Both the position numbers and the translations under genes were made by a program. Source: Nitrosopumilaceae archaeon (GTDB lineage Archaea; Thermoproteota; Nitrososphaeria; Nitrososphaerales; Nitrosopumilaceae). Taken from it: a stretch of DNA of 64,000 bases. Positions 7,020-55,551 of this stretch are shown one piece after another. Positions within the stretch are counted from its first letter, which is position 1. Every line of letters starts with the position of its first letter. The stretch lies in contig CBDBCR010000001.1 of NCBI GenBank assembly GCA_965203465.1, positions 704,001 to 768,000 on the forward strand, read 5' to 3'. The notes under the pieces are model-generated. The model worked only from the letters and a program-made list of their open reading frames with translations. It was not told the DNA's origin and made no database searches.

Positions 7020-7077
7020 CTGGAGTTACTGCGCGCTCGCCTATTTTAGGCATGGCGGACAGATCCCGGCCGGTCGC
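5280..7077. repeat. 1.8-kb direct repeat, copy 1 (partner 28701-30498)
   Basis: Near-identical to 28701-30498 from the stop codon to ~58 bp upstream of the ATG, with scattered substitutions. Confidence 0.95.
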
Positions 7078-7249
7078 CCGGCGCCGGCAGCCCGGGGTTG
7101 GACACGCCCCGCCGCGGGTCGCGCGGCACCTCCGCCCTGCACGAAAGACGCGATTCGCGCGGCACGCCGCGGCAAAGGCCGACAGAGAACATATCGCGCC
7201 CCGCCGATCGCGAGGCAAGATTTTTAATCGGTCCTTCGAAAAGGCGGGC

Positions 7250-18715: not shown

Positions 18716-19038
18716 GACACGCGACTTATCTCCTTTGCTTAAATACCTGCCGTCTATCCCCGGCCAATCTGTTCTCGACCGAATGGCGGTCCATTTCTGA
18801 CGCAGACGTGTCCGAGTCAGCACGGCTGTAAAGGCGGGCGGAGTCCGGTTCGGCGTTGCGTTGTACGGGCGTCAGAGCGGTCATCCGTCGGTGTGGACGC
18901 CATGCCGGAGGCGTCGGAACGGCGCCCCTGCCGTTCCGAGCAGTTTTGCGGTGGCCGCCGTCTTGGTGACATGGGCAGGCATTAACTCCGGGCGCGCCGG
19001 CATCGGAAGTTTTTATACGCGCGCAACCCGGGCGCAGA

Positions 19039-28494: not shown

Positions 28495-28700
28495 GGGGTA
28501 CAGTAAACGTCCGTGTTTATAATATTTGCGAGGCCGCTTTCCGCAAACCCGCCCGTCCTAGGCACGGCTCAGGCACGCGCCGCCCGCAGCTGGAGACGGG
28601 GGCGCGCCGGACTCCGGGCGGCCCGGCGCCGGCCGGGCCTGCGATCGGGCGCCGCCCTTTCGAGCGCCGGCAGATACCCGCCAGCCCCTTCGGGGCCAGC

Positions 28701-30440: not shown

Positions 30441-30498
30441 CTGGAGCTACTGCGCGCTCGCCTATTTTAGGCATGGCGGACAGATCCCGGCCGGTCGC
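28701..30498. repeat. 1.8-kb direct repeat, copy 2
   Basis: Near-identical to 5280-7077. Confidence 0.95.
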
Positions 30499-30590
30499 GC
30501 GGCGCCCGAACCCGTGCAAGAGATCGAAGTCAAGACACAAACTCCGACGTGCCGTGCAGAACCTCGATTGGCGCACTTTACGCACGACTT

Positions 30591-32417: not shown

Positions 32418-32930
32418 GTGTTTAGTTTGGAAGGAGATTGGTACGATGTTGCACAGATCTGCATGAACGGGCACGTTATAAACGATCGTGTAAAGTCAGA
32501 CCCAGAATCCAACCACAAGTTTTGCCGAACGTGTGGAGAAAAAACGATAACTAATTGCACAGACTGCGACAAAGAGATCCAAGGGCGCCATCACATAAAA
32601 AATGCATTCATAAATGTTGTCGGTCTTTTGCCCACAGCTCCGCCATATTGTGAAGGCTGCGGATTCCCGTATCCTTGGACAAAATCGCGAATGGCGGCGT
32701 TGAAGAAATTGCTGGGCGAGTTGGAGATGGAAAAGGCAGAAAAGGCCAAACTGCGCGGGACTGTTAAAGATCTAGTGCGCGAAACGACTAGAACCGAACT
32801 CGCGGCAAACCGCTTTAGGGTGATTTTCAACAAAATAAAACCCGAGCACAAGAAGATGGTTGAGAATATGGCAGTCAATGTAATCTGCGAACCAGCCAAG
32901 AGGCTGATATTCGGAGAACTGGGCGCATAG
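32418..32930 (+). CDS. DUF2321 family Zn-ribbon protein
   Basis: YDVAQICMNGH...KFCRTCGEKTITNCTDC...PPYCEGCGFPYPWT; TATAAATA box at 32393-32400. Confidence 0.8.
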   Translation: MFSLEGDWYDVAQICMNGHVINDRVKSDPESNHKFCRTCGEKTITNCTDCDKEIQGRHHIKNAFINVVGLLPTAPPYCEGCGFPYPWTKSRMAALKKLLGELEMEKAEKAKLRGTVKDLVRETTRTELAANRFRVIFNKIKPEHKKMVENMAVNVICEPAKRLIFGELGA

Positions 32931-33094: not shown

Positions 33095-34912
33095 TCACGG
33101 CAGGTTGTCTAGCAGAACGTGGCGGTCCAGCCACATGTTCCGGTGCTCGCACGAGGTCTCCGACGTCATTAGGCACGCGTAGCACGAGGCCCCGCTGTAG
33201 CCGCCGCTGCGGAATTCGGCGTCCCCGCAGAGCGGGTCCCCCGAGCACGAAGAGGCCTTTTCGAGCGCCGCGCGCAGTATCTTTTCCATGTGCGGTGCAA
33301 GGCCGATCAGCCCGCCCAGCGTGCCCTCGTTCCCCGGCTGGGTCGCGTACAGGAGCACGCCGCCCCTGCACCTGCCCCCGTCTCGCTCGAAATACACGCG
33401 CTCCCTTATGGAAGCGGGCGAATACCCCGCCTCCTCGCCTATGGCCCTTATCAGCAGGTGGGAAACGGTGTGCCACCACACGAACCCCGGATCCAGCTCG
33501 TCCCTAGAGCTGTCCGCGTCGCGGAACACGAACCCCGAATACTGCCCGGCGCCGGCCGCGCCGCCCGTCCACGCCCCGGCATGCGCGCCTTTTGCGCAAC
33601 CCGACCACCCGCAGTCCTTGTCCAGGCGCACGAATACGCCCTCCCCGAAAAATTCCACGCCCGGAAACCAGAGGCCGGATCCTTGTCGGCTGTGGCCTAT
33701 CCGGACCAGCTTGGGGGGCGCCGACCCGACGCTTTCCGGCATGTCCCTGCGGAACCCCGTCTGGACGGTGACCGTCCTGAGCGTCTGGACGGGGGTGATC
33801 CTGAACGCCGTGCCTTTTTTGGTGCGCACGATTCCGATCTCGCGCGGCTCGATCTCGAAAATGATCTTGGCCTTGGGCCTTTCGGCCTCCTGGGGAGGGG
33901 CACCGTGCACGGACGCCTTTACGAGCTCGTGGAATTCGTCCATTATGAGGTCGTGGTACGGGCGGGGCCGGATTTTCCCGTGCTCTTCGACGGCCTGGCG
34001 TATCTCGCTCCAGTCCGACTCCCGGAACTCGTCGAGCACGTCCTTGCGTATTTTTCCGGCGGAGTGGAGTTTTTCCAGCACTTTCATCATTTTCCCCTTG
34101 GATCTGGCCGGCTGGAACATCAGGGCCGTCTGAATGTCGCTGTTTTGCAGGTGCAGGTTCAGGCTGGTGTTGGTAGATCGTATGGACAGCAGGGTCCGGG
34201 TCTCGGGCAGCCTGAGGTTGGAGGCGCGCCTGGTGATCACCTTTGCCTTTCTTTTACACGCCTCGCTGGAGCGCTCGGATCCCCCGTATTCCCTCTGCGG
34301 ATGCCTTCCGCGGCAGGGCCATTCGGAATAGTATATCCTGCCGAACTGCTGGGTCGTGCCGCACCGCGGGCATTCGAGCACCACGTCGCTCATGGTGCTC
34401 CCGCGCCGGTGCCATCTGACCGCGTCCCCCGAAAGCCCCGGGTGGAGCGATCCGGTCTTGCCCGCGCAGGCTGCCCCGCGGTGGACCATCCCGAACCAGT
34501 TGATCTCGTCCAAATGGCCGTCCCCGCACGCCATCACGAACCCGACTGCCGCCCTGCCGCCTCCGGTCTCCGCGTCCTTGCACACGGGGCACAGATCTTC
34601 CCTGTAGATCAGCGATCCTCCGCCGTGGTTCTGGTTGGGGCAGATCTTCCAGACTGGAAACGGCGCGGTGCGGTATACGTCCCCCTCGTGCCCGAGCTCG
34701 GGATTGGTCGGGAGCCTGTATATCTTGGCGCCGTCTAGCAGGCCCTCGGACATCCTCTTGTCGTCTATGCGGTAGTCCTCCGGCCGGAAGCCGGACGGAT
34801 GAAAGAGCCCGATCCCCGCGTCCGGTATAAGCCGGGGGCCGTCCCTGCCCTCCAGAATCGCGCCCGGGCCGTACACGAGTATGAACTGCGAGGGCCTGAT
34901 CTTCTGGGTCAT
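33095..34912 (-). CDS. drmB: DrmB-like DUF1998 protein
   Basis: IRPSQFILVYGPGA, MACGDGHL, GEGVF, HTVSHLLI, SIRERVY, GTLGGL, CSGDPLC...CYACL..SETSCE.RN..LDR; ATGA overlap with the helicase stop. Confidence 0.85.
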   Translation of the reverse strand: MTQKIRPSQFILVYGPGAILEGRDGPRLIPDAGIGLFHPSGFRPEDYRIDDKRMSEGLLDGAKIYRLPTNPELGHEGDVYRTAPFPVWKICPNQNHGGGSLIYREDLCPVCKDAETGGGRAAVGFVMACGDGHLDEINWFGMVHRGAACAGKTGSLHPGLSGDAVRWHRRGSTMSDVVLECPRCGTTQQFGRIYYSEWPCRGRHPQREYGGSERSSEACKRKAKVITRRASNLRLPETRTLLSIRSTNTSLNLHLQNSDIQTALMFQPARSKGKMMKVLEKLHSAGKIRKDVLDEFRESDWSEIRQAVEEHGKIRPRPYHDLIMDEFHELVKASVHGAPPQEAERPKAKIIFEIEPREIGIVRTKKGTAFRITPVQTLRTVTVQTGFRRDMPESVGSAPPKLVRIGHSRQGSGLWFPGVEFFGEGVFVRLDKDCGWSGCAKGAHAGAWTGGAAGAGQYSGFVFRDADSSRDELDPGFVWWHTVSHLLIRAIGEEAGYSPASIRERVYFERDGGRCRGGVLLYATQPGNEGTLGGLIGLAPHMEKILRAALEKASSCSGDPLCGDAEFRSGGYSGASCYACLMTSETSCEHRNMWLDRHVLLDNLP

Positions 34913-37900
34913 GTCTGGAAGCCGGTCTCCTCTTCTATGTTCCTGAGGGACTGCGGGGCGTTGCGGTACACGACTGCGGCGTTCGAATGCTCGTGCCTCG
35001 GATCCCCCAGCACCACCGCCTTTTTCGGGGCGCCGTATTCGACGTACGCCAGGTCCGGATCCCGCTCTGCGCTGCTCCTCCACCGCTCTATCGCCCTCCG
35101 CGCGCCCTTTTCCGTCTCGCCCTCCGCGGGCCTTCTGGAGCCGGGCTGCTTTTGCGATCTGGCCTCCAGAATGCGCGGAACCGCGCCGACTTCCGGGGCG
35201 CCGAAGTCCCGGCCCATTTTGGAGGCGTTTTTGCCCGCCCATTCCTGGGATGCCTCGCGGGCGTTCCTCAGTATGCCGACCATGACCGGCCCCTCCGCCC
35301 GCTCCCTGACCCGCTTGGCGAACGGGAACACGGTGGGCGGCTCGACGAACCTGTGGAGCTGGCGGTGGTGCCTGACGAAAAACTCGTAATGGTTCAGATC
35401 GCGCGGCTTTGAGGCCTGGTGCAGCGTGACCACTATCGCGCCGCTTTTCCTGCCCACCCTGCCGGTGGCCTGTATGTAGGCAGACGAGGTCTTGGGCTGG
35501 CCGTTGACTATCATGGCCCCGAGCCTCTGCACGTCCACGCCGGTGCCGAACATGGAGGTGGTGAACAGCGCGTCCAGTGCGTCTTCGGATCCGGGGTGTT
35601 GCTTGCCCAGCAGATCCAGTATCGACGGCAGGTTGGTAGAAGGCGTCCTTCCGGACAGCTCTTGGCACCTCTCTTCCCTGACGACCCGGGCCTCCGATCC
35701 GGAACGCTCTGCCAAGTGGCGCATCCACTCGGGGATCTCTTGCCTGTACAGCGCCCGCGCGCCCGCCAGCTCCCTTACCGTGTTAAAGTACCCTATCACG
35801 GTCCAGAACCGGTCCGCGCCCAGTTCGCCGGCGCTCTGGGTCAGCCTGGACCATATCCTGACGACCGGCGTGAGCGCGCCGCGGCCCGGGGCGCAGATTC
35901 CGACGTGCAGACGCCCGGCTTCCGCGTCTTGGAGCGGGTGGGCCGGCGTTTCCCGGACGAAGAACCTGTCGTCGGCGTCCAGCCCCTTGGGCGGGAACAC
36001 CGCGATGCCCCTGGCGAACAGGGCCTTTACGTGGTCGCCCGAGCGCTTGGCGGTGGCCGTCGACGCGACGTACTTTACCCGGCCGTCGGCGGAGCACAGG
36101 TGATCCACGGCAGACTCGTATATGCCCACCATGCTGCCCAGCGGGCCGTCGAGCAGGTGGAGTTCGTCCTGGATCATGAGATCGGGCGGCCGTATCCTCC
36201 GCGCCAGCTTTGCGTGGTTCTTTTCCCTGCCGCCCGCCGGGCTCGGATGCGCGACCGACCTCCTGTGGTAGCCCTTGACGTTGTGGTGGTAGTCGACGTT
36301 GCCGAACAGCGAGCCGCTCTGGGGCTCGAATGGGATCCGGGCCAGTTTGTCCACGGTCGAGACGATCATGGTGGGCAGGATCCTGTACAGCTGCTCGTCT
36401 ACGGTGAACGCCGGGATGGGTATGCGGTCCGAAAGGCTGCGCTCTATGGCGAACGCTCCGTTGACGTCCATCATGCAGTTGCCGTCCATGCTCCGGACGC
36501 CGCGCACGGCCTCTTCGGTGTCTGCGCAGTCGGGCACCCTGCCGTGGACCCTGCCCAGGGGCGCCCCTCCGGCCCATTTCGCGACCAGCCGGCAGCCGGG
36601 GTTCGGGCAGAATATCTCAAAGTCGTATTCCCTTCTCTTCCCGTCCTTGGCATAGTCCCGTATAAAGTACCCCGGCCGAGACGCGCTGGCCGGCGCGAGC
36701 CTTGCGGGGGTGCCGTTTTCCCCCAGGCGCTTCCGTATCCTGGACCAGAGCCCGTCCAGATCGCTGCCCCGGATCCTCGAATCGGAGTGGAGCCCGACGG
36801 ACAGGGTGAACACGCCTTCGACCGCGTTCTTGGTGACGCGGGACTTTGTGATTTTCACGTATGGCGCCTCGATCCCGGACAGGCCCGCCGCGTTCAGTCC
36901 CCGGGCCGCGGTGCGCACCACGTAGTGTATCTCGGCGTCTTCGAGCCCCATCTTGGGCGTGGCCAGCACGGATCCGCACGCGGGGCATTCGAGTATCTGG
37001 GCCGGCTCGCCGTCGTTTTCGTGCTCGCCGGCGTGCTTGAGGATCTCCAGGGCTCCGGGCACCGTGCTCCCCCCGAACCACGTGTCGTCCAGCTTGTTGG
37101 GCGTCACGGTGCTGCCCACCCAGAGCCCCACCGAAAAGGGCGCGGTGCCCCACAAAAACCCCTCGTCGCCCCGCCGGCCCCGGGGCCTCCAGCCGACGCG
37201 GCCCCCGCTCAGCCCGTCCACCCTGAGGCGCTCCATGGCCGTAAACAGCGCCGCGGTCCTCCTGAACTGCTGTATGGTCAACAGCCGCAGGGTGTACCTG
37301 CTTATCACCGAGACGCCCTCCCCCGAGCGCGCCCACGTGTGGCTTTTTGCCGCCCGGAGCCGCCTGTATGCAGAGACCATGGCCACCAGGAACAGGTAAG
37401 CCTCGGTCTTGCCTCCCCCGGTGGGAACCCAGAGCAGATCGCACGTGCCCCTGTCTTCGGACTTGCGGTTCAGGATGGATTCGGCGCTCATCAGTATGAA
37501 GCCTAGCTGGAACGGCCTGAATTCCATGCCCTTCCGCCCGGCCCATTCGGCCTGCTCGTCGATGGCGCGGCTTGCAAAACAGAACGCCAGCCTGGCGTCG
37601 TCGTCCTCGCACACCGTCTCTATCCCGAGCTTTATGCGCCTGTGAGCTTCTTGCGCCGCGCGTATGATCTCCGACTTTACGTCGCGCCGGACTCGGCAGC
37701 CGCGCAGCTCGTCTATCCACCGCCCGTACTCGGAGTCGAACGGCTCCAGGTGGCGCCTGAGGGCGGCCTTGTCGTACTCTTGCGCGTATTCGCCCGGTTT
37801 CAGCAGGGGCCGGTTTTTCCCGCGCCATTCAAAGTCCGGCGACATGACGTTGTGCATGGGCACGAATTCTGTCCTCGCGTCGCAGGCGGCAAACTTGGCG

Positions 37901-38742
37901 CGCTGTTTTGCGGGCAGGATCTCGCGGTCGGCCCACGCGAATCCTGGCTGCGATGCGCATTCGGGGGAGCCCGGATGGTCCGTCTCGGGGTCGACGCCCT
38001 TCCAAACGGCGGACGTCATGTGGCCCCTGGCCAGGGATTCCCTGTTTCTGTACAGCACCTCGTCCTCGCTTTCGTCCTTTGAAGCCGCTTCGGCGCCCCG
38101 GCCCGGGACGATCTTCGTGCCCGCGCCGCACACGATCCTGATCTGGGGCTGGAACACGTGGTGGTCGGATCCCGCCTTTTTCCCGGGGGGGACTTTGATC
38201 CTGTTGACCACGTGCATGCTCACGGAGCGCGCCCCGGGGCCCCGGCCCACGCGCACGTGCACCGAAATCTCGCCGTCCCCGCCCGCCGCGTTTCCGTCAG
38301 AATCAAACCACCTCGTCTCTTTGCCCTTTCCGCCCACGCGGAAAATGGCGCACTTTGGAGACCTCGTCCATTGCCCGGCGTCCGGATCCTGCCTGTACCT
38401 GGCCCAAGTAACGCACGCGTCGATCTTGGGGACCCCCGACGACGAGATGGAGAACGTAATGCCCATCGTAGACGGGATCTTTTTTGGATCGAGGGCCGGC
38501 GACAGCATGGAAGACGGCGAGATCCCGGGTTCGGCGTCCTCGTCCCCCTCCCTCTTTTCCGCGGTGCCGGCGAGATCCGAGTCTGATCCGGGCTCTTCGT
38601 CGCGGCGCTCCGCCTCGGCGCCTACGGGCGCCAGTATGCCCGTGATGTATTCGACTATGGGCTTGTCTGCCAGGGTTTCCCGCGGCCCGCCGCGCGGGCC
38701 CAGGAGGTTCTTGACCAGATCGCAGACCAAAACTTCCCTCAA
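34909..38742 (-). CDS. drmA: DrmA-like SF2 helicase, copy 1
   Basis: FRPFQ, PTGGGKTEAY, RYTLRLLT.QQF, TVDK, IQDELH, STAT, TSMFGTGVD, QPK, YIQATGRVGR, RDLNHYE, QSLRNIE. Confidence 0.88.
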   Translation of the reverse strand: MREVLVCDLVKNLLGPRGGPRETLADKPIVEYITGILAPVGAEAERRDEEPGSDSDLAGTAEKREGDEDAEPGISPSSMLSPALDPKKIPSTMGITFSISSSGVPKIDACVTWARYRQDPDAGQWTRSPKCAIFRVGGKGKETRWFDSDGNAAGGDGEISVHVRVGRGPGARSVSMHVVNRIKVPPGKKAGSDHHVFQPQIRIVCGAGTKIVPGRGAEAASKDESEDEVLYRNRESLARGHMTSAVWKGVDPETDHPGSPECASQPGFAWADREILPAKQRAKFAACDARTEFVPMHNVMSPDFEWRGKNRPLLKPGEYAQEYDKAALRRHLEPFDSEYGRWIDELRGCRVRRDVKSEIIRAAQEAHRRIKLGIETVCEDDDARLAFCFASRAIDEQAEWAGRKGMEFRPFQLGFILMSAESILNRKSEDRGTCDLLWVPTGGGKTEAYLFLVAMVSAYRRLRAAKSHTWARSGEGVSVISRYTLRLLTIQQFRRTAALFTAMERLRVDGLSGGRVGWRPRGRRGDEGFLWGTAPFSVGLWVGSTVTPNKLDDTWFGGSTVPGALEILKHAGEHENDGEPAQILECPACGSVLATPKMGLEDAEIHYVVRTAARGLNAAGLSGIEAPYVKITKSRVTKNAVEGVFTLSVGLHSDSRIRGSDLDGLWSRIRKRLGENGTPARLAPASASRPGYFIRDYAKDGKRREYDFEIFCPNPGCRLVAKWAGGAPLGRVHGRVPDCADTEEAVRGVRSMDGNCMMDVNGAFAIERSLSDRIPIPAFTVDEQLYRILPTMIVSTVDKLARIPFEPQSGSLFGNVDYHHNVKGYHRRSVAHPSPAGGREKNHAKLARRIRPPDLMIQDELHLLDGPLGSMVGIYESAVDHLCSADGRVKYVASTATAKRSGDHVKALFARGIAVFPPKGLDADDRFFVRETPAHPLQDAEAGRLHVGICAPGRGALTPVVRIWSRLTQSAGELGADRFWTVIGYFNTVRELAGARALYRQEIPEWMRHLAERSGSEARVVREERCQELSGRTPSTNLPSILDLLGKQHPGSEDALDALFTTSMFGTGVDVQRLGAMIVNGQPKTSSAYIQATGRVGRKSGAIVVTLHQASKPRDLNHYEFFVRHHRQLHRFVEPPTVFPFAKRVRERAEGPVMVGILRNAREASQEWAGKNASKMGRDFGAPEVGAVPRILEARSQKQPGSRRPAEGETEKGARRAIERWRSSAERDPDLAYVEYGAPKKAVVLGDPRHEHSNAAVVYRNAPQSLRNIEEETGFQT

Positions 38743-39265
38743 GGCGTGCGCCTTGGAGCGGGCCGACTTTATAATGTTGCATCCGGGGCCCGGTAAGCGG
38801 TCAGGTCAGTGGATAGCCTAGTCACGAAAAAGCGCCGCGTGTAGATCGGGCCGTGCCTAAACGCAAGCCCGGCCTGGCCGGTTACGGGGCCCGAGAGTTG
38901 CCCAACCCCCGTGGCCGGGGTCGCCTCGCGCCACCCTACGTCATCCGTACCTAATTTCCGGGCGTCAAGCGCGCCACGGCGTCGGCGACGGCCCCGCATC
39001 CAAGGTTAGGCGGCAGACTGCTTGGTGTGCGCGTGAGTCACGTCTGCCGACAAGTTCCAAGAGCGGAATGGCGCTTTATGGCCGCCTGCAAAAGCCGCCC
39101 GCGTCGGGCGGCGCCGCATCGAGTGTTCTTTGGCCCCTGCGGGCGGCTCCGCCTGCCGCCGAGCCCCCAAAACGACGGAATCCGCCGCTTTGGGAGATTT
39201 ACGGGGGAATTATGCGGCGACCCCCTACGGTTATCTCTTTATTTGCGTGCCGGGGGCCCCCGAGT

Positions 39266-41158
39266 GTGGGTAGGCCGTATTCGAAAGAACTGGACATGGT
39301 GCCCCTGACCTACGCGTGGGCAAACCGCGCCCCGATCGGCGATCTTGGGGCGCTGGTAAACAGGTGCGCCAATGCTCCGCTGTACGCCGTAGGCTCCGGC
39401 GGATCTTTTACCGCCGCGACGTTCGCTTCCGCACTGCACCAGCGGGGGGGCAAGATCTCCAGGTGCATGACGCCACTGGAGTTTGTCTGGCACCCGAGCC
39501 TTGACGGCGACGCCTGCGTGGCCATAGTCACGGCCGGCGGCAACAACAAGGACATACTGGCGTCCTTCGACAAGGCGGCCGCGTCTGCGCCGCTGACGGG
39601 CGTAGTCTCTACAAGCGCGGAGAGCAGGCTGGTCAGAAGGGCGGGCGGCGTCAAGAACGTGCTTGTCCACGCCGCGTGCCCTCCCTCCGGCAGGGACGGG
39701 TTTCTTGCCACGAACTCGCTGATCGCCACGATGCTCTGGCTGTCCCGCGCGTACATAGAGGGGCTCTCGCTCCCGTACGAGATTCCAAAATTTGCGAGGC
39801 TTGCTTCCTGCGGGCCCGGCGCGTTCGAAAAGGCGCGCGGCAAAAAAACGCTAGTCGTGCTGCACGATGACTGGGGCAAGACGGCCGCGGTCGACGCAGA
39901 ATCAAAGATGGTGGAAGCCGGCCTGGCCAACGTCCAGATTTCGGACTACCGCAACTTTGCCCACGGCAGGCACAACTGGCTGGACAAGGCTTCAAGCGAG
40001 ACCTGCGTCGTGGCGATGATCACGCCGCAGTGCCTCGGCCTGGCCGACAGGACGATAGGGTTCGTTCCGGCCGACGTGCCGGTCGTTCGCCTGGCGACGG
40101 ACTTGGACGGTCCTGCGGCGGCGATAGACCTGACCCTCCAGGTGTTCCGCATGGTGGAGTTTTTCGGCGCCGTCCGGGGGATCGATCCTGGGCGGCCCGG
40201 CGTCAAGGACTTTGGACGCCGGATCTACGGCATCGGCGTGCCGAACTTGTGCGAGGACGACCTGGCCGACTTTGAAAGGCTGGCGCTGCGCCGAAAGTTC
40301 GGCAGCGCCGGATCCAAAGCCAAGTCGCGCCAAAAGTCGCTTGGCCGTTTCGTCTCCAAGATGCTCCGGCAGGAGTTTGGAGCGGTCGTATTCGACTACG
40401 ACGGGACGCTCTGCGACGACGGCCGGCGGTTTGAAGGGCCCTCCCCCGAGATCGGATCCATGCTGGCAGGACTGGTCAGGCGCGGGGTGTACGTGGGGGT
40501 GGCGACCGGCCGGGGGGAATCGGTCCGCACGCAACTAGCAAGGCTCCTCCCCGGCAAATACCACGCAGGCGTGCTAATCGGATACCACAACGGCTCCCAG
40601 ATGGGCGGCCTTGCGGACCGCAACGTGCCAGACCCGCACCTGCCTCCAGACGAAGCGCTGCATTCGGCCTTTGAGGCGCTCCAGGCCCGCGGGTTTGAAA
40701 AAAACGGCGCCTCGGCTGGGCCTGCGCAGATATCTCTCAGATTGCCCAACCCGGACGCGCGGCAAGTGCAGCGCCTCGTGGAAGAGTCGGGCGTGGCAGG
40801 TGTCAGGGCGGTCGAATCTGGGCATTCGGTGGACCTGCTTGCTCCGGGGGTATCCAAACTCTCCCTGCTCTGCCACATCAAGGAGCGGTTGCCGAAGGGG
40901 CGCAAGATCCTATGTGTCGGAGACAGGGGCCGGTGGCCCGGCAACGACCACGAACTCCTGGGGACGGAGTACTCTCTCAGCGTCGACGAGGCGTCCGAAG
41001 ACCCATCGAGGTGCTGGAACCTGCTCCCTGCCCACAAGCGCGGCGCGGCAGGAACTTTGCATTATATGGGATGGTTTGGTGTGCGCGACGGCTTTGTCAA
41101 GCTCGAAAAAAATCTCGCAGATATGCGCGGCTCGAATGCCGCTGGAAGGAGACGATGA
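39266..41158 (+). CDS. double-SIS sugar-phosphate-binding domain fused to HAD (Cof-type) phosphatase
   Basis: AVGSGGS, TAGGNNKD, DGFLATNS, KMVEAG, DYRNFAHGRH (SIS); FDYDGTL, ATGR, SK, GDRG..PGND (HAD motifs I-IV). CTTTATTT box favours GTG 39266 (MGRPYSKEL). Confidence 0.82.
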   Translation: MGRPYSKELDMVPLTYAWANRAPIGDLGALVNRCANAPLYAVGSGGSFTAATFASALHQRGGKISRCMTPLEFVWHPSLDGDACVAIVTAGGNNKDILASFDKAAASAPLTGVVSTSAESRLVRRAGGVKNVLVHAACPPSGRDGFLATNSLIATMLWLSRAYIEGLSLPYEIPKFARLASCGPGAFEKARGKKTLVVLHDDWGKTAAVDAESKMVEAGLANVQISDYRNFAHGRHNWLDKASSETCVVAMITPQCLGLADRTIGFVPADVPVVRLATDLDGPAAAIDLTLQVFRMVEFFGAVRGIDPGRPGVKDFGRRIYGIGVPNLCEDDLADFERLALRRKFGSAGSKAKSRQKSLGRFVSKMLRQEFGAVVFDYDGTLCDDGRRFEGPSPEIGSMLAGLVRRGVYVGVATGRGESVRTQLARLLPGKYHAGVLIGYHNGSQMGGLADRNVPDPHLPPDEALHSAFEALQARGFEKNGASAGPAQISLRLPNPDARQVQRLVEESGVAGVRAVESGHSVDLLAPGVSKLSLLCHIKERLPKGRKILCVGDRGRWPGNDHELLGTEYSLSVDEASEDPSRCWNLLPAHKRGAAGTLHYMGWFGVRDGFVKLEKNLADMRGSNAAGRRR

Positions 41159-42237
41159 TCGACATACGTGAGACCATCTTGGCCCACGTGCTGGGATGGG
41201 AAGAAGACATAGGAGACGAGTACTACGATCTACAAGCGCTGGGAAACTCCGGCTACGACGATTACATGCAGTTCAGGCCCGGGATGAGGTTCGTGGCCAG
41301 CCTGGCAATGTGGCTAAAGCAGTTTCCGCCCGAGAAACGCACGGCCGCATACGAGTTTGTCAAAAAGCACGTCTTGTGTATCACGCGGGCACAAATGGAG
41401 CAGCTCGTGTCCGTAGCGTATCCGGACTATGTAATACCCATCCTCGCCAAGCAGATTGCGGGCGACGAGTCCAACAGCCTGCGCCGATGGGACGTAACCA
41501 AGACGCTCCGCTCTCGAGAGTTCGACATGCTGCACAAACGATGCCTGTTCATGGGCATGAGCGACGGATCCCACATCGACGAATTCAGGCGGAGCGGCGA
41601 CAAGATAGACCACGAGCAGGTGACAAGAACGCATGAAATAAACAGGGCCAGGGCAGACACGTTGCGCAGAAAACTGGAGAAGAGAACGAATTCGTCTGGA
41701 CAAAAAACATATTTCCAAAACGTCTTTCTGCTGGACGATTTTTCCGCCACGGGTACAAGCTACATAACCGAGGACGGGCAGTCTGGCAAGATCGCAGCTT
41801 TCCACAAAGCCATAACGTCTCCAGAAGACCCGCTGCACGGCTTGGTCGACCTTAAAGATTTGAAAGTTCACGTGATCCTGTACGTCGCCACGGAGCGGGC
41901 CGTTGGAACCATACGCAGCAATGGCGAAAAATTGTTTGGCGCCGTCCGGTTTTCGGTTACTGCCATACACACCATACCCGACTCTGTCAAGTTCGACGAA
42001 TCCGCAAATCCCGAATTTGCAGAACTGGTGCGTAATGAGTGTTTCGGGTACGAGAACATACTAGACGAGCACATGACCGCCGAAAACTCGCCTCAGCCGT
42101 GGCTCGGCTTTGGAAGTTGCGGCCTTCCGCTCGTGTTGTACCACAACACACCCAACAACTCTCTGCCCATCCTGTATAGGAACGACGAAAAGACCAAGTT
42201 TAAGGGGCTGTTTCCAAGGGTCAGGAGGCACCAGTGA
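41155..42237 (+). CDS. phosphoribosyltransferase-like protein
   Basis: VFLLDDFSATGTS PRPP-binding loop; HNTPNNSLPIL and LFPR C-terminal motifs; ATGA overlap with the upstream gene. Confidence 0.78.
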   Translation: MIDIRETILAHVLGWEEDIGDEYYDLQALGNSGYDDYMQFRPGMRFVASLAMWLKQFPPEKRTAAYEFVKKHVLCITRAQMEQLVSVAYPDYVIPILAKQIAGDESNSLRRWDVTKTLRSREFDMLHKRCLFMGMSDGSHIDEFRRSGDKIDHEQVTRTHEINRARADTLRRKLEKRTNSSGQKTYFQNVFLLDDFSATGTSYITEDGQSGKIAAFHKAITSPEDPLHGLVDLKDLKVHVILYVATERAVGTIRSNGEKLFGAVRFSVTAIHTIPDSVKFDESANPEFAELVRNECFGYENILDEHMTAENSPQPWLGFGSCGLPLVLYHNTPNNSLPILYRNDEKTKFKGLFPRVRRHQ

Positions 42238-44153
42238 TGGCCCCCCGGAACCTCTTCCGCGTGCGCACAGCAGAATATTTGGACGATTACGCGTTTTTGA
42301 AATTGTTTGGCGCCGAAGCATTGGATATATTCAACGCCGATAAAGTTTGGGCACAGATGCAAATAATTAGAAGCTCGCGCGGAGGAGGCAAAACATCGTT
42401 GTTGCGGATTTTTTCCCCGCGTTCTTTAAACCAGATAAAAAACCAAGCGACGTCCCTAAAACCGCTTGTAGACAAACTGGTGGAACTCGGCGTGCTTTCG
42501 GACACACACGAGATCAACATGCTGGGAGTCTCACTCTCGCTGTTTGGAAACTATTCCCTCTTGGAGCATCTGGGCTTTGAGCGGCCACGGCAACAACGTC
42601 TGTTCTTCGCGCTGTTGGCAAGCAAGATCGTCATATCTGCCCTCCGGAGCGTGTGCGAGTTGAAGAAGGCCAAGTTTCCGGACGATCTAATCCGCATACG
42701 CATAGACCGTCCGCCCGATCCGAACATACGCGAATGCGTCCCAGTTCCGTGTGACGGACAACGGCTGTACGAATGGGCGGCGGAAATAGAAAACCGCGTG
42801 TATGCCATCATAGAACAACAGTCGGATTCGGACAAGGATCTGGGCGGGTACGAGACGCTTTCCCTCATACACCTGATCCAGTCTTCCAACCTGTCTTATG
42901 ACGGCAAACGCGTAGCTGAAAAGACGTTGCTGATGTTGGACGACGCACATTGTCTTACTCCTACACAAAGGAAACATCTTGCGCGCGCTTTAACCAACCT
43001 GCGGGTGCCGTTGATATGGGTAGCCGAGAGGCTCGAAGCTTTGAATCCGGAAGACATGCTCTCGCCCGACGGAACCGACGGGAGAGAATGGGGGCCGTCC
43101 TTGATAGTAGAGCAGTTTTGGCGACATAAACGCCGTCGTTCAAAGTTCGTTTCCTTCCTGAAGGCAATATCCAACAAACGCGCAAGTTCGGGAGACTCGG
43201 ACGTGGATTTTTCTGGCATGCTGACTGACGCACTCACACAACATGAGCGTTTCGAAGAAGCGATAGAACAGGAATCCAAACGCATAACTCGAGCGTTCGG
43301 CACAAACCCGCAGTACAAAGAGTGGTTTTCCAACTGCCAAAATTGTAGCGGGAGTCAGTCAGAGAGGGCCATGCAGTGGAGGCTGTTGGAGATAAACATA
43401 GAAAGGCTAAAACACCACAAACAGCAGCTGCTTTTCCCCAACGATCCCTTAGCTGTCGGTCTGCAGACCACGTCTCCGTCTACTAGGCACGTGGCAAATT
43501 TTTACATACGCAAAAAATACAACATTCCGCACTATTATGGTTTCGACAGCCTTGCACGCTTGTCCTCCTCCAACGTGCAGCAGTTTCTTTATTTGGCGGG
43601 TGGCCTTTTTGACCAGATCACGAACGCCCGCATAGCCGGCAGGCCTGTCGAACTATCTCCAAAAAAGCAGGACGAAATACTCACACAGGCGGCGGCCCGG
43701 CGCTGGGACGACATAATACGAATCATAGACGATCAAGCTCTAGAAAACTTTGTAGACAACATGGCCGACTTTTGCACCAAAGAGACGGATCTTCCCAACG
43801 CTCCGTACGACAGCGTTACCGGAATAGCAATATCGACAGAGAATCTCAGGCTCCTGCAAAACCTCCCCCCAAACGGCCATTCTCAACACAGACGGCTGGC
43901 CAGCATTCTGTCCACCTGCTTTGCCCACAACATACTGGAGCCCAGACCGTACGCCAAGCAGGGATCTCCGGGAACCACTCATCTGGTAATGTATCTCAAT
44001 CGACTCTTTTGCATACGCTACAAACTACCGCTTGCGTACGGAGGATGGAGGGAAAAGTCGCTTTCCGATCTGCTGGTTTTCTCACAGACCCGATCCAGCA
44101 GGATCCCGCTCCTAGATCACGTTCAAAGCGAACTGGGGGCGAGCTCCGCGTGA
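42234..44153 (+). CDS. ORC/CDC6-like AAA+ ATPase
   Basis: NLFRVRTAE, SRGGGKTSLLR Walker A, LLMLDD Walker B, C-terminal wHTH-like YLNRLFC..Y.LP; GTGA overlap. Confidence 0.75.
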   Translation: MMAPRNLFRVRTAEYLDDYAFLKLFGAEALDIFNADKVWAQMQIIRSSRGGGKTSLLRIFSPRSLNQIKNQATSLKPLVDKLVELGVLSDTHEINMLGVSLSLFGNYSLLEHLGFERPRQQRLFFALLASKIVISALRSVCELKKAKFPDDLIRIRIDRPPDPNIRECVPVPCDGQRLYEWAAEIENRVYAIIEQQSDSDKDLGGYETLSLIHLIQSSNLSYDGKRVAEKTLLMLDDAHCLTPTQRKHLARALTNLRVPLIWVAERLEALNPEDMLSPDGTDGREWGPSLIVEQFWRHKRRRSKFVSFLKAISNKRASSGDSDVDFSGMLTDALTQHERFEEAIEQESKRITRAFGTNPQYKEWFSNCQNCSGSQSERAMQWRLLEINIERLKHHKQQLLFPNDPLAVGLQTTSPSTRHVANFYIRKKYNIPHYYGFDSLARLSSSNVQQFLYLAGGLFDQITNARIAGRPVELSPKKQDEILTQAAARRWDDIIRIIDDQALENFVDNMADFCTKETDLPNAPYDSVTGIAISTENLRLLQNLPPNGHSQHRRLASILSTCFAHNILEPRPYAKQGSPGTTHLVMYLNRLFCIRYKLPLAYGGWREKSLSDLLVFSQTRSSRIPLLDHVQSELGASSA

Positions 44154-45238
44154 CGGACTACGTTCGGCGTTATTTCGCGCCCAGCGGCCCTGATTTTGAG
44201 GGGTTTTGGAAGGAATACTTGAAGACAGAGCGCCGGATCATGTTCGTGACTGGGCTGGGATTTGATCCGAGATCATTTGACTGCCTCAAAAAAATCATAG
44301 CGTGCAACACCAAATCCACGATCGATTACAGGATCGTCGAATACGACTATTTTATCCAGAACGGCAAGATGAGGGACATGTATGAAAATAACCGGAACGA
44401 ACTGGAAGAAATGGGGTTGCCACAGGCGTCCAAACAACCTATACGCATGCAGGGTGACGAGAACATGACATCCACCGACGCCATCAGGTCAGTTACAGGC
44501 GAAGATCTCTGCACGCATTCTGACATCGTCGTCGACGTCACCTCGATGCCGGTGGGGGCTTATTTCCCGATGATTAAAAGCATCTTGTCCATGATCAAAC
44601 GGTCCGCAGACCCCAAAGTCAGAAAAACCAACCTGCACATAACCGTATCTGAAAACCCCCGCATGGACGCGTCAATACAGGAAACCACCAAAAACGAGAA
44701 ATCCGCGCACATGCACAGGTTTAGCCAGAGTCTTGAAAAAGAGACGATGCGCGGCGTGCCAAAGGTATGGATTCCGGTGCTTGGCGCCAACCAAAAAGAC
44801 CAGTTTGGCAAAATAAAATCCCAGATCACCCCCGCCGAAACCATCCCTGTGCTTCCAATGCCGTCGTCTGATCCGTATGAATCCAGAGACATACTCTTGG
44901 AATACAGCGCGCTTTTCGACGATCTCCAGATCGAGCAAAGAAACGTGGCCTATTCGGACGAACAAAACCCGTCGGAGACGTGCGCAAAAATAATGGCGAT
45001 CGCCAGAGACTACGATCGCCTGTGCGCCACAATGAGAAGATGCGTCGTAGTGATCTCCCCGCTCGCAAACAAGCTGCGTTGCATAGGGTGCCTGATGGCA
45101 GCATGCGACCTGCTTGACGAGGGCATAGATCTAGCAGTCGCATACGTGCCCAACCAATCATACAGCATCAAAGACACTTTTACGAAAAGCCCCAGCACAC
45201 TTTGCACGATATGGCTTGCCGGTGAGTGCTATGAGTGA
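44150..45238 (+). CDS. hypothetical protein, tandem CARF/Rossmann-like domains
   Basis: GLGFDPR, IVVDVTSMP, WIPVLG, VISPLANK pattern; GTGA overlap with the ATPase stop. Confidence 0.6.
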   Translation: MTDYVRRYFAPSGPDFEGFWKEYLKTERRIMFVTGLGFDPRSFDCLKKIIACNTKSTIDYRIVEYDYFIQNGKMRDMYENNRNELEEMGLPQASKQPIRMQGDENMTSTDAIRSVTGEDLCTHSDIVVDVTSMPVGAYFPMIKSILSMIKRSADPKVRKTNLHITVSENPRMDASIQETTKNEKSAHMHRFSQSLEKETMRGVPKVWIPVLGANQKDQFGKIKSQITPAETIPVLPMPSSDPYESRDILLEYSALFDDLQIEQRNVAYSDEQNPSETCAKIMAIARDYDRLCATMRRCVVVISPLANKLRCIGCLMAACDLLDEGIDLAVAYVPNQSYSIKDTFTKSPSTLCTIWLAGECYE

Positions 45239-46235
45239 CGCCGCTAGGCCCGCATGCGTCGGGACGGGTCTGGTGGTACTCGACGCGATTTATGACGCAA
45301 GAGGCGCAGGCCCCAAGTTCTTGGCGGGAGGCTCGTGTGCCAACGTGCTCACGATACTGTCGTACCTGGGATGGGATTCGTACCCGGTGGCGCGACTCGG
45401 AGGCGATCTAGAAGGGAGGCGCGTGATCGCGGACATGAAATCGTGGGGTGTGCACATGGAGTTTGTGCAGACCGAGACTGAATTGGCCACCCCTCGGATC
45501 ATAGAGCAGGTGGGGAGGGGAGGGCGCAAGACGCACAGGTTCCGTTTCACGTGCGACCACGGCCGCCGGCTCCCCCGGCGGAGGCCGTACACCCTCCGGG
45601 CGGCCGGCGAGGCGCTGGCCCGGCTGCCGGCGGCCGGCGTGTTTTACTTTGACCGGGCGGGTCCGGGCGTGCTAAAGATGGCCCTGCGCATGAAGGCCGG
45701 CGGGGCCGTCGTGTTCTTTGAGCCCCACAAGCCCTCAGGCGGCGCGATCTTTGAAAGGTGCCTGCGGGCAGCCGACATAGTCAAGCACTGCGGCGACGCC
45801 ACGGGCAACCCGCAGGTTCCGTTGGAGATACAGACGCTGGGAGGGGACGGCCTGCGGTACAGGACGCGCGGGACGGACTGGGTGAGCATGCATGCCTTTC
45901 CCGTCCGTGACTTGGTAGACACGGCCGGATCGGGCGACTGGCTGTCGGCGGGCCTGATCCACCGCATGTTCGGCGGCGGCTCGTCCAGAATTCCCGCCCG
46001 GCGCGGCATCGAGTCCGCACTCAGATTTGGGGAAGCGTTGGCCGCAGCAAACTGCAGCTTTGTAGGCGGTCGCGGGATGATGTATTCCGTAACGCGGGAT
46101 CGGGCGCTCGGACTGGCAGAAAAGATAGCGTCTAGCCGGATGGCGGTACCCGTCGGCACCAGCACGCTGCGGGCAGGCCGGGCACCCGGATGCAGGGTAT
46201 GCCTATGCGGGACGGCCGACGGGTACCGCCGCTAG
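45231..46235 (+). CDS. PfkB/ribokinase-family carbohydrate kinase
   Basis: GLVVLD, AGGSCANV, LGGD..G, ADIVK, TLGGDG, VDTAGSGD; ATG 45231 overlaps the upstream gene. Confidence 0.85.
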   Translation: MSDAARPACVGTGLVVLDAIYDARGAGPKFLAGGSCANVLTILSYLGWDSYPVARLGGDLEGRRVIADMKSWGVHMEFVQTETELATPRIIEQVGRGGRKTHRFRFTCDHGRRLPRRRPYTLRAAGEALARLPAAGVFYFDRAGPGVLKMALRMKAGGAVVFFEPHKPSGGAIFERCLRAADIVKHCGDATGNPQVPLEIQTLGGDGLRYRTRGTDWVSMHAFPVRDLVDTAGSGDWLSAGLIHRMFGGGSSRIPARRGIESALRFGEALAAANCSFVGGRGMMYSVTRDRALGLAEKIASSRMAVPVGTSTLRAGRAPGCRVCLCGTADGYRR

Positions 46236-53820: not shown

Positions 53821-55551
53821 TTGGAACTTGTAGCCGTCTCTTTTGAAAACTACAAGAGCTTCAAGGAGCGCATCGAATTGGACCTCGGCCGGATCACCTA
53901 CCTGATCGGCCCAAACGGCGCCGGCAAGTCAAACGTCTTTGCGGGCATAAATTTCATTTCGGCGATGGTTCAAAAGGAGGATCGTCCGAGCTTGGATGAT
54001 TGCTTTGACGGGATGCAAGATGCGGCCACAACCTTTTCGTTCACGGTGAAATTGTCCGAAGACGAACGGCGCAGACTTGGGAAGGATCGCGGTCATGGCG
54101 AAATCGTGACTCCAGACAACAGTGCGTTGAAGCTTCTAAAACACGAAGTGTCGTTTCAAAACAACCGGCAGATACGACAAAAACTTTTACTGTCGGATGC
54201 TGGCGGAACGCTACGGCTCGTGCAAGATCTGCGTATCGACGATGATGTGTACAAGCTAGACGACCGTGTAGGTGGAAGCATGGGTCTGAAGGCCGAGTAC
54301 ACCCTGAAACTGAACCAAGAAGATTTAGCCGCCCTGCCTATTCAGGATTTTATTACTGCTTTTGACCAATCTTTATACCGCCTCATGACTGCCCTGTTCT
54401 CTTCTCTAAGATTGGTGGGAGAGCGTAAAAAATTCCCAGGCAGTGCGTCCGTGAGCCAAGACGACGAAGTTTCATCGGACGGCGATAATCTACCAAACCA
54501 ACTAATGACCGTGTTCAATGATCGATCCCAAATTCAAAAATTTAGCAGCAAACTCAACCACCTTTCTTCGGGGGCGATTGACGGAATCGATTCAAAATTG
54601 CAAGGAACAAAAGCCGTGATAGAATTACAAGAAAAATGGAGAAAGAGCACCACCGACCCTTCTGAGATCAGCAGCGGACACCACCAGCAGGTCATCCTGT
54701 TGTCTTTTTTGGCTCGGTTCAAAGAACCGCTCGTCATGATCGAGGAGCCAGAGCTACACCTGCACGCATCGGTTCAAAAAAACCTGCTCGATTTCATACG
54801 TGACCATCTTCCCGACAAGCAAGTGATCATAGCTACGCATTCCCCGATATTCGTAAACGTCTCGGAGACCGAATCGACGTTCCTGCTGTCTAAAGACGAA
54901 CGGGGATCGCACGCGACTCCGATTTCCAAGTCCAACGCTAATTTGATCCGGCTGCGCATGGGGATCGACCACTCAGACATCCTCGGCGGCGGACACCTGC
55001 TGTGCGTGGAGGGCCTGTCGGAAAAGACAGCAATACCGGCGCTTGCGCGCAGGCTGGGGTACGAGGCGGGTCCGTCCCCTTGGATACTGGACCTCGAGGG
55101 GTACGGCAACACAAAACACTTAGAGCTGCTGCTCAAATACTTGGGTATGGAGGACAAGAAGTTCTTCATCCTTTTGGACAAGAACGGCAAAGCTCGAGCT
55201 CATGTAGAACAGCTCTTAAAAAAAGACAAGTTTACGGAAGATCAGTGCTATTTTTTGGAGGGCAATTTCGAGGACCTGTTTCCAAGCAGCATGCTGGCCG
55301 AATGCAGCAGGCAGCTTGCCAAAGAACGCGGCGTCGCGCTAGAGCTGTCCGGGGAAGAGCTGGAGCGGCGCAGGAAGGAAGGCAGCGTTACGGACGTGCT
55401 CGAAGAAGCGTGGCAAAGGCGCGCGCCGGGGCACGGCTATCCAAAGAAGGATCTTGCAGCACTCTTGGCCCGGGAGCCGGGAGAGGTGCCGGAAAAAGCG
55501 GCAGAGGCCGTGGGCAAGGTCATGGCCGGGCTCGGGATATCGAGGGCATAG
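53821..55551 (+). CDS. OLD-family ATP-dependent nuclease (ABC ATPase plus TOPRIM)
   Basis: FENYKSF, GPNGAGKS, ISSG, MIEEPELHLH, IATHS; TOPRIM CVEGLSE...LLDKN, NFEDLF. Confidence 0.88.
   Translation: MELVAVSFENYKSFKERIELDLGRITYLIGPNGAGKSNVFAGINFISAMVQKEDRPSLDDCFDGMQDAATTFSFTVKLSEDERRRLGKDRGHGEIVTPDNSALKLLKHEVSFQNNRQIRQKLLLSDAGGTLRLVQDLRIDDDVYKLDDRVGGSMGLKAEYTLKLNQEDLAALPIQDFITAFDQSLYRLMTALFSSLRLVGERKKFPGSASVSQDDEVSSDGDNLPNQLMTVFNDRSQIQKFSSKLNHLSSGAIDGIDSKLQGTKAVIELQEKWRKSTTDPSEISSGHHQQVILLSFLARFKEPLVMIEEPELHLHASVQKNLLDFIRDHLPDKQVIIATHSPIFVNVSETESTFLLSKDERGSHATPISKSNANLIRLRMGIDHSDILGGGHLLCVEGLSEKTAIPALARRLGYEAGPSPWILDLEGYGNTKHLELLLKYLGMEDKKFFILLDKNGKARAHVEQLLKKDKFTEDQCYFLEGNFEDLFPSSMLAECSRQLAKERGVALELSGEELERRRKEGSVTDVLEEAWQRRAPGHGYPKKDLAALLAREPGEVPEKAAEAVGKVMAGLGISRA

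Follow-up and report, generated by a model that had tools for sequence, protein, structure and literature searches.

Prokaryotic defence systems in which a phosphoribosyltransferase (PRTase) is the toxic principle include retron type III-A and the two-gene toxin-antitoxin system ShosTA/PsyrTA. The PRTase of Retron-Eco11 is reported to deplete phosphoribosyl pyrophosphate (PRPP) once activated (PMC12746101). The toxicity of ShosT is reported to depend on its PRTase site and to be aided by a hydrolase domain, fused to the toxin, that removes pyrophosphate (PPi) (PMC11961720), a precedent for cooperation between a PRTase and an auxiliary phosphohydrolase. Here, we describe a five-gene operon (genes A to E, positions 39266-46235) in a 64,000-nucleotide stretch of DNA, referred to at its full length as the window, from a Nitrosopumilaceae archaeon (GenBank assembly GCA_965203465.1, contig CBDBCR010000001.1, positions 704,001 to 768,000). 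The domain identities of its products, their intact catalytic motifs, and the synteny, mobility and defence-island context of the genes are all observed. There is little doubt that the operon is a real, conserved and mobile cassette, and it probably serves defence or conflict.

The five open reading frames (ORFs) lie on the plus strand and are joined by overlapping stop and start junctions (Table 1). The junctions recorded in the initial annotation, which had been made from the sequence alone, are all present: the stop codon of A overlaps the start of B in an ATGA at 41155, GTGA sequences mark the B/C and C/D junctions at 42234 and 44150, respectively, and the ATG of E at 45231 creates an 8-nt overlap with D, whose stop codon occupies positions 45236-45238. 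Gene E ends with a TAG codon at 46233-46235. The catalytic motifs that had been called intact, in A, B, C and E, were read from translations and are conserved across 70-79 homologues, and each of the five domain calls (SIS-HAD, PRTase, ORC/Cdc6-like ATPase, CARF and PfkB) is matched by profile or structure comparison. Upstream of gene A, the centre of a TATA-like TTTATTT box is 25 nt from the GTG at 39266. The host rRNA gene scores 1441.8 bits with the archaeal small-subunit model, as against 1088.5 bits with the bacterial model, and given an archaeal host and this box spacing, a leaderless transcript starting at the GTG codon is plausible. The residues 'EL' encoded just 5' of the ATG at 39296 correspond to the conserved N-terminus of homologues, which supports the GTG at 39266 as the start of gene A.

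To assess conservation of the cassette, a scan guided by a profile was made across prokaryotes, with each species represented by one genome, and returned 100 relatives; gene orders in the best 80 loci were obtained by searching them with the five window proteins. With D alone as the query against genome contigs, no relative was found. The order A-B-C-D-E is kept in 64 of the 80 loci, B-C-D-A-E and A-E-B-C-D occur once each (the latter at locus L078), seven loci carry A-B-C-D without E, and the remaining seven are incomplete and end at contig ends. Genes A to D are present at every locus that is not cut by a contig end, and the B-C-D block is unsplit throughout. The recurrence of gene set and order in 64 of 80 independently fetched loci places the cassette far beyond chance, and thus the five genes that had been proposed as one unit do travel in that form. 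The seven loci without E form one clade in a tree of B, C and D, with an alphaproteobacterial clade as its sister. In six of these seven loci a NADAR gene (Pfam 1e-24 to 1e-29) lies directly 5' of A, the seventh locus being cut at this point, whereas L078, which falls in the alphaproteobacterial sister clade, and a Sinorhizobium plasmid carry both E and NADAR.

Within the cassette, the genes do not behave alike. Spearman correlations of pairwise identities, which are descriptive figures from related and hence non-independent loci, are 0.80-0.89 among B, C and D, compared with 0.52-0.67 where A or E is involved. The GC content of the window genes is divided along the same line, at 0.51-0.54 for B, C and D versus 0.64-0.67 for A and E (window average 0.61), and parallels the modular pattern of gene order and co-variation. 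The GC difference could stem from a mosaic origin or from amino-acid composition. Judged by order, co-variation and GC content, the cassette is composed of a putative B-C-D core and an A/E module. Two metagenome-assembled genomes (MAGs) labelled Armatimonadota and one labelled Bacillota carry an additional gene between A and B, which is dCTP-deaminase/dUTPase-like (PF22769 down to 4.3e-10, and PF00692; L013:6280-6939, L014:6305-6952, L017:5047-5706). By their family assignments, the NADAR and dCTP-deaminase-like extras would fit a theme of nucleotide or ribosyl chemistry.

The cassette is widespread and its distribution is suggestive of horizontal transfer. The labels of bacterial loci include Chloroflexi/Anaerolineae, Nitrospirae, Armatimonadota, cyanobacteria, Acidobacteriota, Bacillota, Myxococcota, Planctomycetota, Verrucomicrobiota, Desulfobacteraceae, Alpha-, Beta- and Gammaproteobacteria, Bacteroidota and Chlorobiales, with at least 12 phyla among them, and those of archaeal loci include Methanoregula, Methanosarcina, Methanobacteriota, Thermoplasmata and Nitrosopumilus. 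A profile search with D returned 937 representatives at E<=1e-3, a number that falls to 699 at <=1e-10 and to 416 at <=1e-30; nearly all of them are stand-alone proteins of 360-390 amino acids. In the B+C+D tree, a midpoint-rooted FastTree phylogeny read without inspection of branch support, archaeal-labelled loci appear at no fewer than four separate places. The nearest relative of all five window proteins is a MAG labelled Nitrosopumilus; among 400 other genomes of the host phylum the cassette was not found, the only matches being six weak fragments covering 65-76 model positions. D is encoded on 19 plasmid records, nine of which are typed as conjugative, with the cassette genes annotated as 'hypothetical', 'HAD hydrolase', 'PfkB kinase', 'NADAR' and 'fructokinase'. 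For instance, the Paenarthrobacter plasmid pTC2 has the order B-C-D-A-E, and Sinorhizobium meliloti pRRI128_5 (L098, 1-10140) has C'-D'-A-E-NADAR-HTH-B-C-D, where C'-D' is a divergent second pair. On the latter plasmid B matches in two pieces (6016-6786 and 6810-7085) and may be frameshifted. Cultured organisms that carry the cassette include Chryseobacterium ginsenosidimutans JCM 16719, Corallococcus sicarius CA040B, Paenarthrobacter aurescens TC1 (on pTC2) and, with the NADAR variant, Allopusillimonas ginsengisoli. No relatives of D were found in viral contigs, nor relatives of C in phage records.

In the window, the cassette is situated between drmAB and a KAP NTPase, as had been noted initially: DrmA and DrmB are encoded directly upstream on the minus strand, and the downstream gene encodes a PifA/QatA-like KAP NTPase (Pfam 2.7e-33). 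Defence-type genes, including one for an OLD/GajA/AriA/HEC-01A-like ATPase and one for a 1,446-amino-acid protein, are spread across the window from about 14 to 64 kb, and the window is a defence island. For the relatives, 174 flank ORFs lying no more than two genes from the cassette were surveyed, after loci had been clustered at 80% identity of C and each cluster reduced to a single locus. No family occurs in more than eight loci, the largest being NADAR. Given as raw counts without a background comparison, the Pfam matches among the families listed include ResIII (4), DEAD (3), BrxL, SNF2, TrwC and PIN (2 each), together with IS66, IstB, integrase, TrbI and TrwB. The corresponding PADLOC matches at E<=1e-10 include BrxL (3), BrxHI/II (2), PglZ, DrmD (2), DrmMI, JetC, type I, IIG and III restriction-modification (R-M) proteins, ZorD (2), GajB, AbiEi, mad2 (4), PbeA and CARF3. 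Transporter-type families among those listed amount to one ABC_tran and two periplasmic-binding matches, and no cas or cyclase gene is among them. The setting is therefore one of defence and not of sugar catabolism, as the initial annotation had it, with flanks that are repeatedly defence-related or mobile and few transporter matches. Tempering the defence reading, the flank ORFs come from crude greedy calling and the top 25 families of each scan, the defence counts lack a background, and some flanks are housekeeping genes, namely those for Pol III alpha, NrdD, acetyl-CoA carboxylase and SRP54.

The housekeeping flanks could also be read as signs of a mobile accessory operon that metabolises or salvages a ribosyl or ketosamine compound, with the ATPase and a ligand-binding protein as its regulators, and without a role in defence. 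Three of the five proteins do look like ordinary sugar or nucleotide enzymes, public annotations name a 'HAD hydrolase', 'PfkB carbohydrate kinase' or 'fructokinase', and many of the plasmid carriers are rhizobial. However, no transporter is linked to the cassette, E scores far under the NCBIfam equivalog cut-offs, and B belongs to a clade of defence PRTases. A stand-alone CARF protein and an ORC-like ATPase would be atypical metabolic regulators, genes of BREX, DISARM, R-M, Wadjet or Zorya systems recur in the neighbourhood, and the distribution is patchy and crosses domains. A purely metabolic role is accordingly regarded as very doubtful.

Table 1. Positions of the cassette genes and of other features in the window
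Feature	Coordinates	Strand	Basis
TATA-like box TTTATTT	39238..39244	+	sequence read; promoter role inferred
Gene A, double-SIS + HAD-IIB fusion	39266..41158	+	profile and motif matches
Gene B, retron III-A-type PRTase	41155..42237	+	Pfam, PADLOC, motifs
Gene C, ORC/Cdc6-STAND-like AAA+ ATPase	42234..44153	+	Pfam, AlphaFold2 model
Gene D, stand-alone tandem-CARF protein	44150..45238	+	PADLOC CARF6, AlphaFold2 model
Gene E, PfkB-family kinase	45231..46235	+	Pfam, PDB profile matches
DrmA, first copy	34909..38742	-	PADLOC, E=0
DrmB	33095..35728	-	PADLOC, 8e-177
DrmA, second full-length copy	59815..63714	+	
OLD/GajA/AriA/HEC-01A-like ATPase	53821..55551	+	PADLOC, about 1e-24
1,446-amino-acid protein	14483..18823	-	PDC-M54A, 8e-27; Avs2 weakly
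DUF2321 protein	32418..32930	+	Pfam, 2.3e-46
Direct repeat, two copies	5270..7085 and 28691..30506		98.5% identity
Inverted repeat, two arms	35321..35587 and 63027..63293		73% complementary

The product of gene B provides the closest link to a described system. B matches Pfam PF24390 (PRTase-CE) at 1.4e-21 and the PADLOC retron PRTase_III-A models at 1e-13, contains the PRPP loop LLDDFSATGT, of which L.DDF..G is invariant among homologues, and has a G318-x14-P333-N-N motif; on these sequence features it is assigned to the retron type III-A clade of PRTase effectors. A Gx14PNNxP motif is reported to mark retron-associated PRTases (PMC12746101); the window protein reads PNNSLP, that is PNNxxP as opposed to PNNxP. 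Sequence and profile searches of the PDB gave no match for B. Like the type III-A enzymes, B probably acts on PRPP or nucleotide pools. It differs from them in lacking the winged helix-turn-helix at the C-terminus and in having an N-terminal domain of its own, a conserved helical extension of ~130 amino acids without a Pfam match. Moreover, the five cassette proteins are without a reverse transcriptase domain in Pfam scans, the neighbours are DrmA and the KAP NTPase (a noncoding RNA was not searched for), and control of B would here come from the ORC-like ATPase and the CARF protein. With ShosTA and PsyrTA the cassette would share a PRTase as toxic principle, and the HAD domain of A could be the counterpart of the hydrolase fused in ShosT; however, there are five genes in place of two, Pfam and PADLOC detect no DprA/SLOG-like domain in A to E, and B has no ShosT family match in PADLOC at E<=0.1.

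Such comparisons bear on what B might do. A PRTase could write an N-(5-phosphoribosyl) compound, serving as a small messenger or marking a base or protein, that would be read by the double CARF protein and the ORC-like ATPase and erased by SIS-HAD together with PfkB or NADAR. The initial annotation had favoured a write, read and erase circuit of this sort, and it is here considered rather unlikely. Since B belongs to the retron III-A clade, and PRPP depletion is reported for Eco11 (PMC12746101), a role of B as effector is at least as likely as one as signal writer.

In the case of gene C, the Pfam match is to PF24389 (ORC-CDC6-like; 6.7e-24, 85 bits against a cut-off of 27). In five host genomes the strong PF24389 matches are the cassette C proteins, and the sole other match above the cut-off is a 40-position fragment; the Pfam family thus appears, from these searches, to be essentially the cassette C family. 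Searches of the PDB with the C sequence and profile gave only one designed protein (E 0.03), and PADLOC-DB v2.0.0 has no family matching C at E<=0.1. An AlphaFold2 (AF2) model of C (predicted local distance difference test, pLDDT, 87.5) has a predicted layout of AAA+ core, helical lid and C-terminal winged-helix-like domain. Compared via this model, the best structure is the archaeal AAA+/winged-helix ATPase PAB2304 (2qen, Z 11.9, root-mean-square deviation (rmsd) 4.8, 313 residues), followed by Cdc6/Orc1 (2qby, Z 10.6) and then MalT, MuB, TnsC, BrxC and NLRs. Walker A (GGGKT) and Walker B (LLMLDD) motifs are present, with G50, G52, K53 and D236 invariant. C therefore shares core, lid, winged helix and Walker motifs with the STAND and ORC/Cdc6-like NTPases, among them Avs/NLR-like proteins, BrxC and TnsC/MuB-like proteins, and is likely to be a nucleoside triphosphate (NTP)-dependent switch as well. 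Unlike those proteins, C has neither sensor repeats nor an effector, and a CARF protein and a PRTase always accompany it.

Gene D encodes a protein of 362 amino acids with two CARF-like lobes and no further (effector) domain. D matches the PADLOC CARF6 model PDLC01910 at 4.7e-79 over model positions 6-348 of 348, and matches no Pfam family; sequence and profile searches of the PDB return only chance-level matches. Its close relatives form 48 clusters among 5.8 billion proteins, and in the ESM Atlas D finds only 'hypothetical protein' clusters, none with a Pfam family. R41, D129 and K308 are invariant, and CARF-type D-x-[ST] and S..K motifs are conserved. Via an AF2 model (pLDDT 89.6, predicted template modelling score, pTM, 0.91), the best structural match is Can1 (6sce, Z 15.5, rmsd 3.0, 232 residues, model positions 29-337), which has two CARF domains within one chain. 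Csm6, Cam1, Can2, Card1 and Csa3 follow at Z 9-13, along with the ring nuclease Sso2081 (Crn1) on the second lobe, and SAVED domains align across both lobes with Z about 8. The modelled fold thus superposes on both CARFs of Can1, and more weakly on SAVED, and D would presumably bind one nucleotide in a pseudo-dimeric pocket. In contrast to the Can1 and SAVED sensors of type III CRISPR and CBASS, D carries no fused nuclease or effector, and its locus has no cyclase or Cas10.

The likeness to Can1 raises the question of whether the cassette serves type III CRISPR-Cas or CBASS in trans, as an accessory module responsive to cyclic oligoadenylates (cOA). The nearest structures to the D model are proteins that bind cyclic tetra- or hexaadenylate (cA4/cA6), which would accord with such a role, and one surveyed flank ORF encodes a CARF3 protein. 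However, Pfam and PADLOC scans of the operon detect no cyclase, no cas or cyclase gene was seen in the operon or among the flank families listed, and Cas10 models (Csm1 TIGR02578, Cmr2 TIGR02577) match none of five host genomes, including that of the window, whereas control genomes were matched. With no operon cyclase and no Cas10 in these hosts, it is unlikely that D binds cOA supplied by a resident type III system. Its ligand is probably not a CRISPR-made cOA, and a role as a cOA-responsive module is highly improbable.

The A and E proteins belong to families of sugar-phosphate chemistry. The N-terminal ~320 residues of A form a double-SIS region of the GlmS/NagB-II/FrlB type, with profile matches in the PDB to the SIS protein 2aml (1.7e-6) and to the glucosamine-6-phosphate deaminase 8eol and 3hba (3.6e-6); a single-sequence search of the PDB with the SIS part gave no match. 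The alignment to 2aml (positions 13-240) includes ES(K)..E and the F.HG of the second SIS domain, and the ES(K)..E and HG residues have a catalytic role in SIS enzymes. The remainder of A, at the C-terminus, is a phosphatase or mutase of the HAD-IIB (Cof/PMM-like) type (2pq0 at 1.2e-6, 1ymq at 2.1e-6), with phosphomannomutases among the PDB matches and an NCBIfam HAD-IIB match at 2.5e-8; Pfam and NCBIfam scores are under the curated cut-offs. All four HAD motifs are invariant in 35 sequences (D367, D369, G370, T371, G405-R-G407, S409, K521, G542-D543 and N550-D551), and the conserved motifs of A as a whole are GSGGS, ES..E, F.HGRH, FDYDGTL, ATGRG.S, K and GD..GND. E matches Pfam PfkB at 5.4e-16 (59.2 bits against a cut-off of 25.8) and, by profile, the fructokinase 5ey7 (2.2e-14), PH1459 (3.6e-14) and 1tyy (7.3e-12), with ketohexokinases also near; these matches place E in the fructokinase/ketohexokinase/riboside-kinase-like PfkB subgroup. 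A DTAGSGD motif and an N-terminal GG are present, with G33, G34, D230, G233, G235 and D236 invariant, and E is far under every NCBIfam equivalog cut-off. Neither A nor E has a PADLOC-DB v2.0.0 family at E<=0.1. Conserved Cys pairs are also a feature of the E-family kinases: one follows the first lobe, with the consensus CPxCG and C108/H110 in the window protein, and the other is a CxxC at the C-terminus (C321/C324), a pattern suggestive of a Zn-binding element, which to our knowledge is not typical of PfkB kinases.

The deglycase FrlB and its partner kinase FrlD come from the double-SIS and PfkB families, respectively, and the NADAR proteins act as N-glycosidases. The HAD, double-SIS, PfkB and NADAR components are consistent with chemistry on an N-(5-phosphoribosyl)-amine or ketosamine, and the phosphoribosyl or sugar-phosphate theme of the initial annotation gains support from the exchange of PfkB for NADAR and from the double-SIS and PfkB pairing. 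The same families, as PfkB plus double-SIS or as SIS plus PfkB plus HAD, make up the FrlD/FrlB and GmhA/HldA/GmhB routes; the cassette differs from both in scores far under equivalog cut-offs, in its location in defence islands and not with catabolic or lipopolysaccharide genes, and in the clade that has NADAR in place of the kinase. A frl-type catabolic operon was discounted for the missing transporter and for those scores, and a heptose or GDP-mannose-type biosynthetic operon for the missing nucleotidyltransferase and the defence context. Also set aside was the suggestion, made initially, that sugar adducts are removed from hypermodified phage DNA; the cassette has no DNA glycosylase or nuclease and the idea is unsupported.

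SIS, PfkB and HAD proteins are also the families of a route of sugar-1-phosphate (heptose) activation, and the HAD-IIB matches include phosphomannomutases, both of which would suit a factory for antiviral nucleoside or nucleotide analogues. Here, E, A (as isomerase plus phosphatase or mutase) and B would build a nucleoside or nucleotide with an unusual modified sugar as a poison of viral polymerases, and C and D would gate its production, in the manner of prokaryotic viperins and of a proposal made for Ophion. Nucleoside-like metabolites have been predicted as products of PRTase and HAD dyads in Ter systems (PMC7824862), and Ophion is reported to couple a PRTase with nucleotide-modifying enzymes (bioRxiv 10.1101/2025.09.30.679545). 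However, the cassette contains no nucleotidyltransferase or PRPP-synthetase-like gene, the NADAR variant dispenses with the kinase, and B clusters with retron PRTases, for which the documented effect is PRPP depletion (PMC12746101). Production of an analogue is thus quite unlikely.

The model preferred here, and held only tentatively, is one of effector, regulators and processing enzymes, in which B drains PRPP, C and D exert control, and A with E or NADAR processes the product. The cassette would be a self-contained, horizontally mobile unit directed against viruses or mobile elements and built of two modules. B is taken as the effector since no other component has toxic relatives that have been characterised by experiment; once switched on, B would move phosphoribosyl from PRPP onto an acceptor, and the drain on PRPP would starve nucleotide synthesis, leading to abortive infection or growth arrest. 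C and D as the regulators of B would be in keeping with the way the three genes stay together as a block and co-vary tightly. C may be an NTP-driven winged-helix switch that senses a cue from the invader, either DNA or protein, and D a tandem-CARF receptor supplying a small-nucleotide input other than resident type III cOA. A and E (or NADAR) would form an accessory module acting on the (phospho)ribosyl product of B, with the HAD domain of A removing or moving the phosphate of that product. Such processing could draw the reaction forward while the acceptor is recycled, or could remove the product so as to reduce self-damage and reset the system.

An arrangement that would assign a different role to B is a CARF circuit that operates without a cyclase, whereby B, A and E or NADAR make and degrade a (phospho)ribosyl-type molecule, D reads it, and C is the output or hub, for instance as an ATP-dependent DNA-binding block. 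The absence of a fused effector from D and of a cyclase from the operon would be explained in this manner, and with Cas10 in none of the five hosts the ligand would have its source elsewhere. Also favouring it are the universal presence of A, accessory enzymes whose family roles suit N-(phospho)ribosyl-amine or Amadori chemistry, and the second C'-D' pair that adjoins A-E on the Sinorhizobium plasmid. On the other hand, C has no recognisable killing or nuclease domain, a documented toxic homologue exists for B only, none of the known CARF ligands is made by a PRTase, and B, C and D co-evolve most tightly, as would be expected of an effector with its regulators. This circuit is therefore viewed as an improbable alternative to the effector model.

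Several points weigh against the effector model and the assignments it draws on. We infer every one of its functional steps. A is present at every untruncated locus, making it more than a dispensable helper and leaving room for signalling; the presence of A at every complete locus suggests an essential role, and enzymes that make or destroy the ligand of D are thus possible. Few PRTases of the B family are characterised, and for ShosT, in the search for its acceptor, no purine binding is reported (PMC11961720). The two halves of D show no similarity in hhalign (probability 0.3%), so that the tandem-CARF assignment rests on predicted structure, and Foldseek searches of the D model gave mostly low-TM matches unrelated to CARF. 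A Foldseek search of the C model returned nothing at E<=0.001, with Cdc6/Orc1 top-ranked. The Cas10 sample is limited to five genomes.

With regard to known systems, PADLOC-DB v2.0.0 contains no match at the system level, B matching only the retron PRTase models and D only generic CARF6 models. Literature searches, in which the CARF-classification literature was incompletely covered, found no description or test of the gene combination and no mention of PF24389 or PF24390, and a term search of the main text of the 2014 CARF/WYL paper found no PRTase, ribokinase or sugar kinase. The initial view that no named system corresponds to the whole set is upheld by these searches, and its description of the operon as undescribed stands for the combination and not for the parts: by their sequence matches, the components C, B and D are already catalogued as PF24389, PF24390 and the CARF6 models. 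We know of no characterised defence system that uses sugar-phosphate enzymes. The cassette joins such enzymes to a candidate PRTase effector, a predicted CARF sensor and a STAND/ORC-like switch, and it extends from several archaeal lineages and many bacterial phyla to conjugative plasmids. Its study could show what a CRISPR-independent CARF protein senses, which acceptor a defence PRTase uses, and how PRPP or ribosyl compounds are controlled in infection. The variants provide natural experiments to this end, with PfkB exchanged for NADAR, a dCTP-deaminase-like insert, or duplicated C-D pairs. Signalling through CARF independently of a cyclase, if it occurs, would mean that bacteria and archaea share an immune second messenger, or a reversible modification, of a new class.

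Elsewhere in the island, the second full-length DrmA is 44% identical to the first and in the opposite orientation, and only the first adjoins DrmB. The two arms of an inverted repeat of 267 nt lie within or next to the DrmA genes. The direct repeat extends over 1,816 bp, with its copies 23.4 kb apart, and each copy encodes a 579-amino-acid protein that is 98% identical to the other. The 579-amino-acid proteins align with type IIG/ISP restriction-methyltransferases (PF18135) in the C-terminal part only; the match to PADLOC REase_MTase_IIG (3.6e-132) covers profile positions 1024-1636 of 1646. An R-M specificity module that was duplicated or broken up could account for the repeat, or the copies could mark the ends of an inserted segment. 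The DUF2321 gene, which has no PADLOC match, is followed by a 190-amino-acid ORF that belongs to no family, and the two are positioned between the R-M fragment and DrmB.

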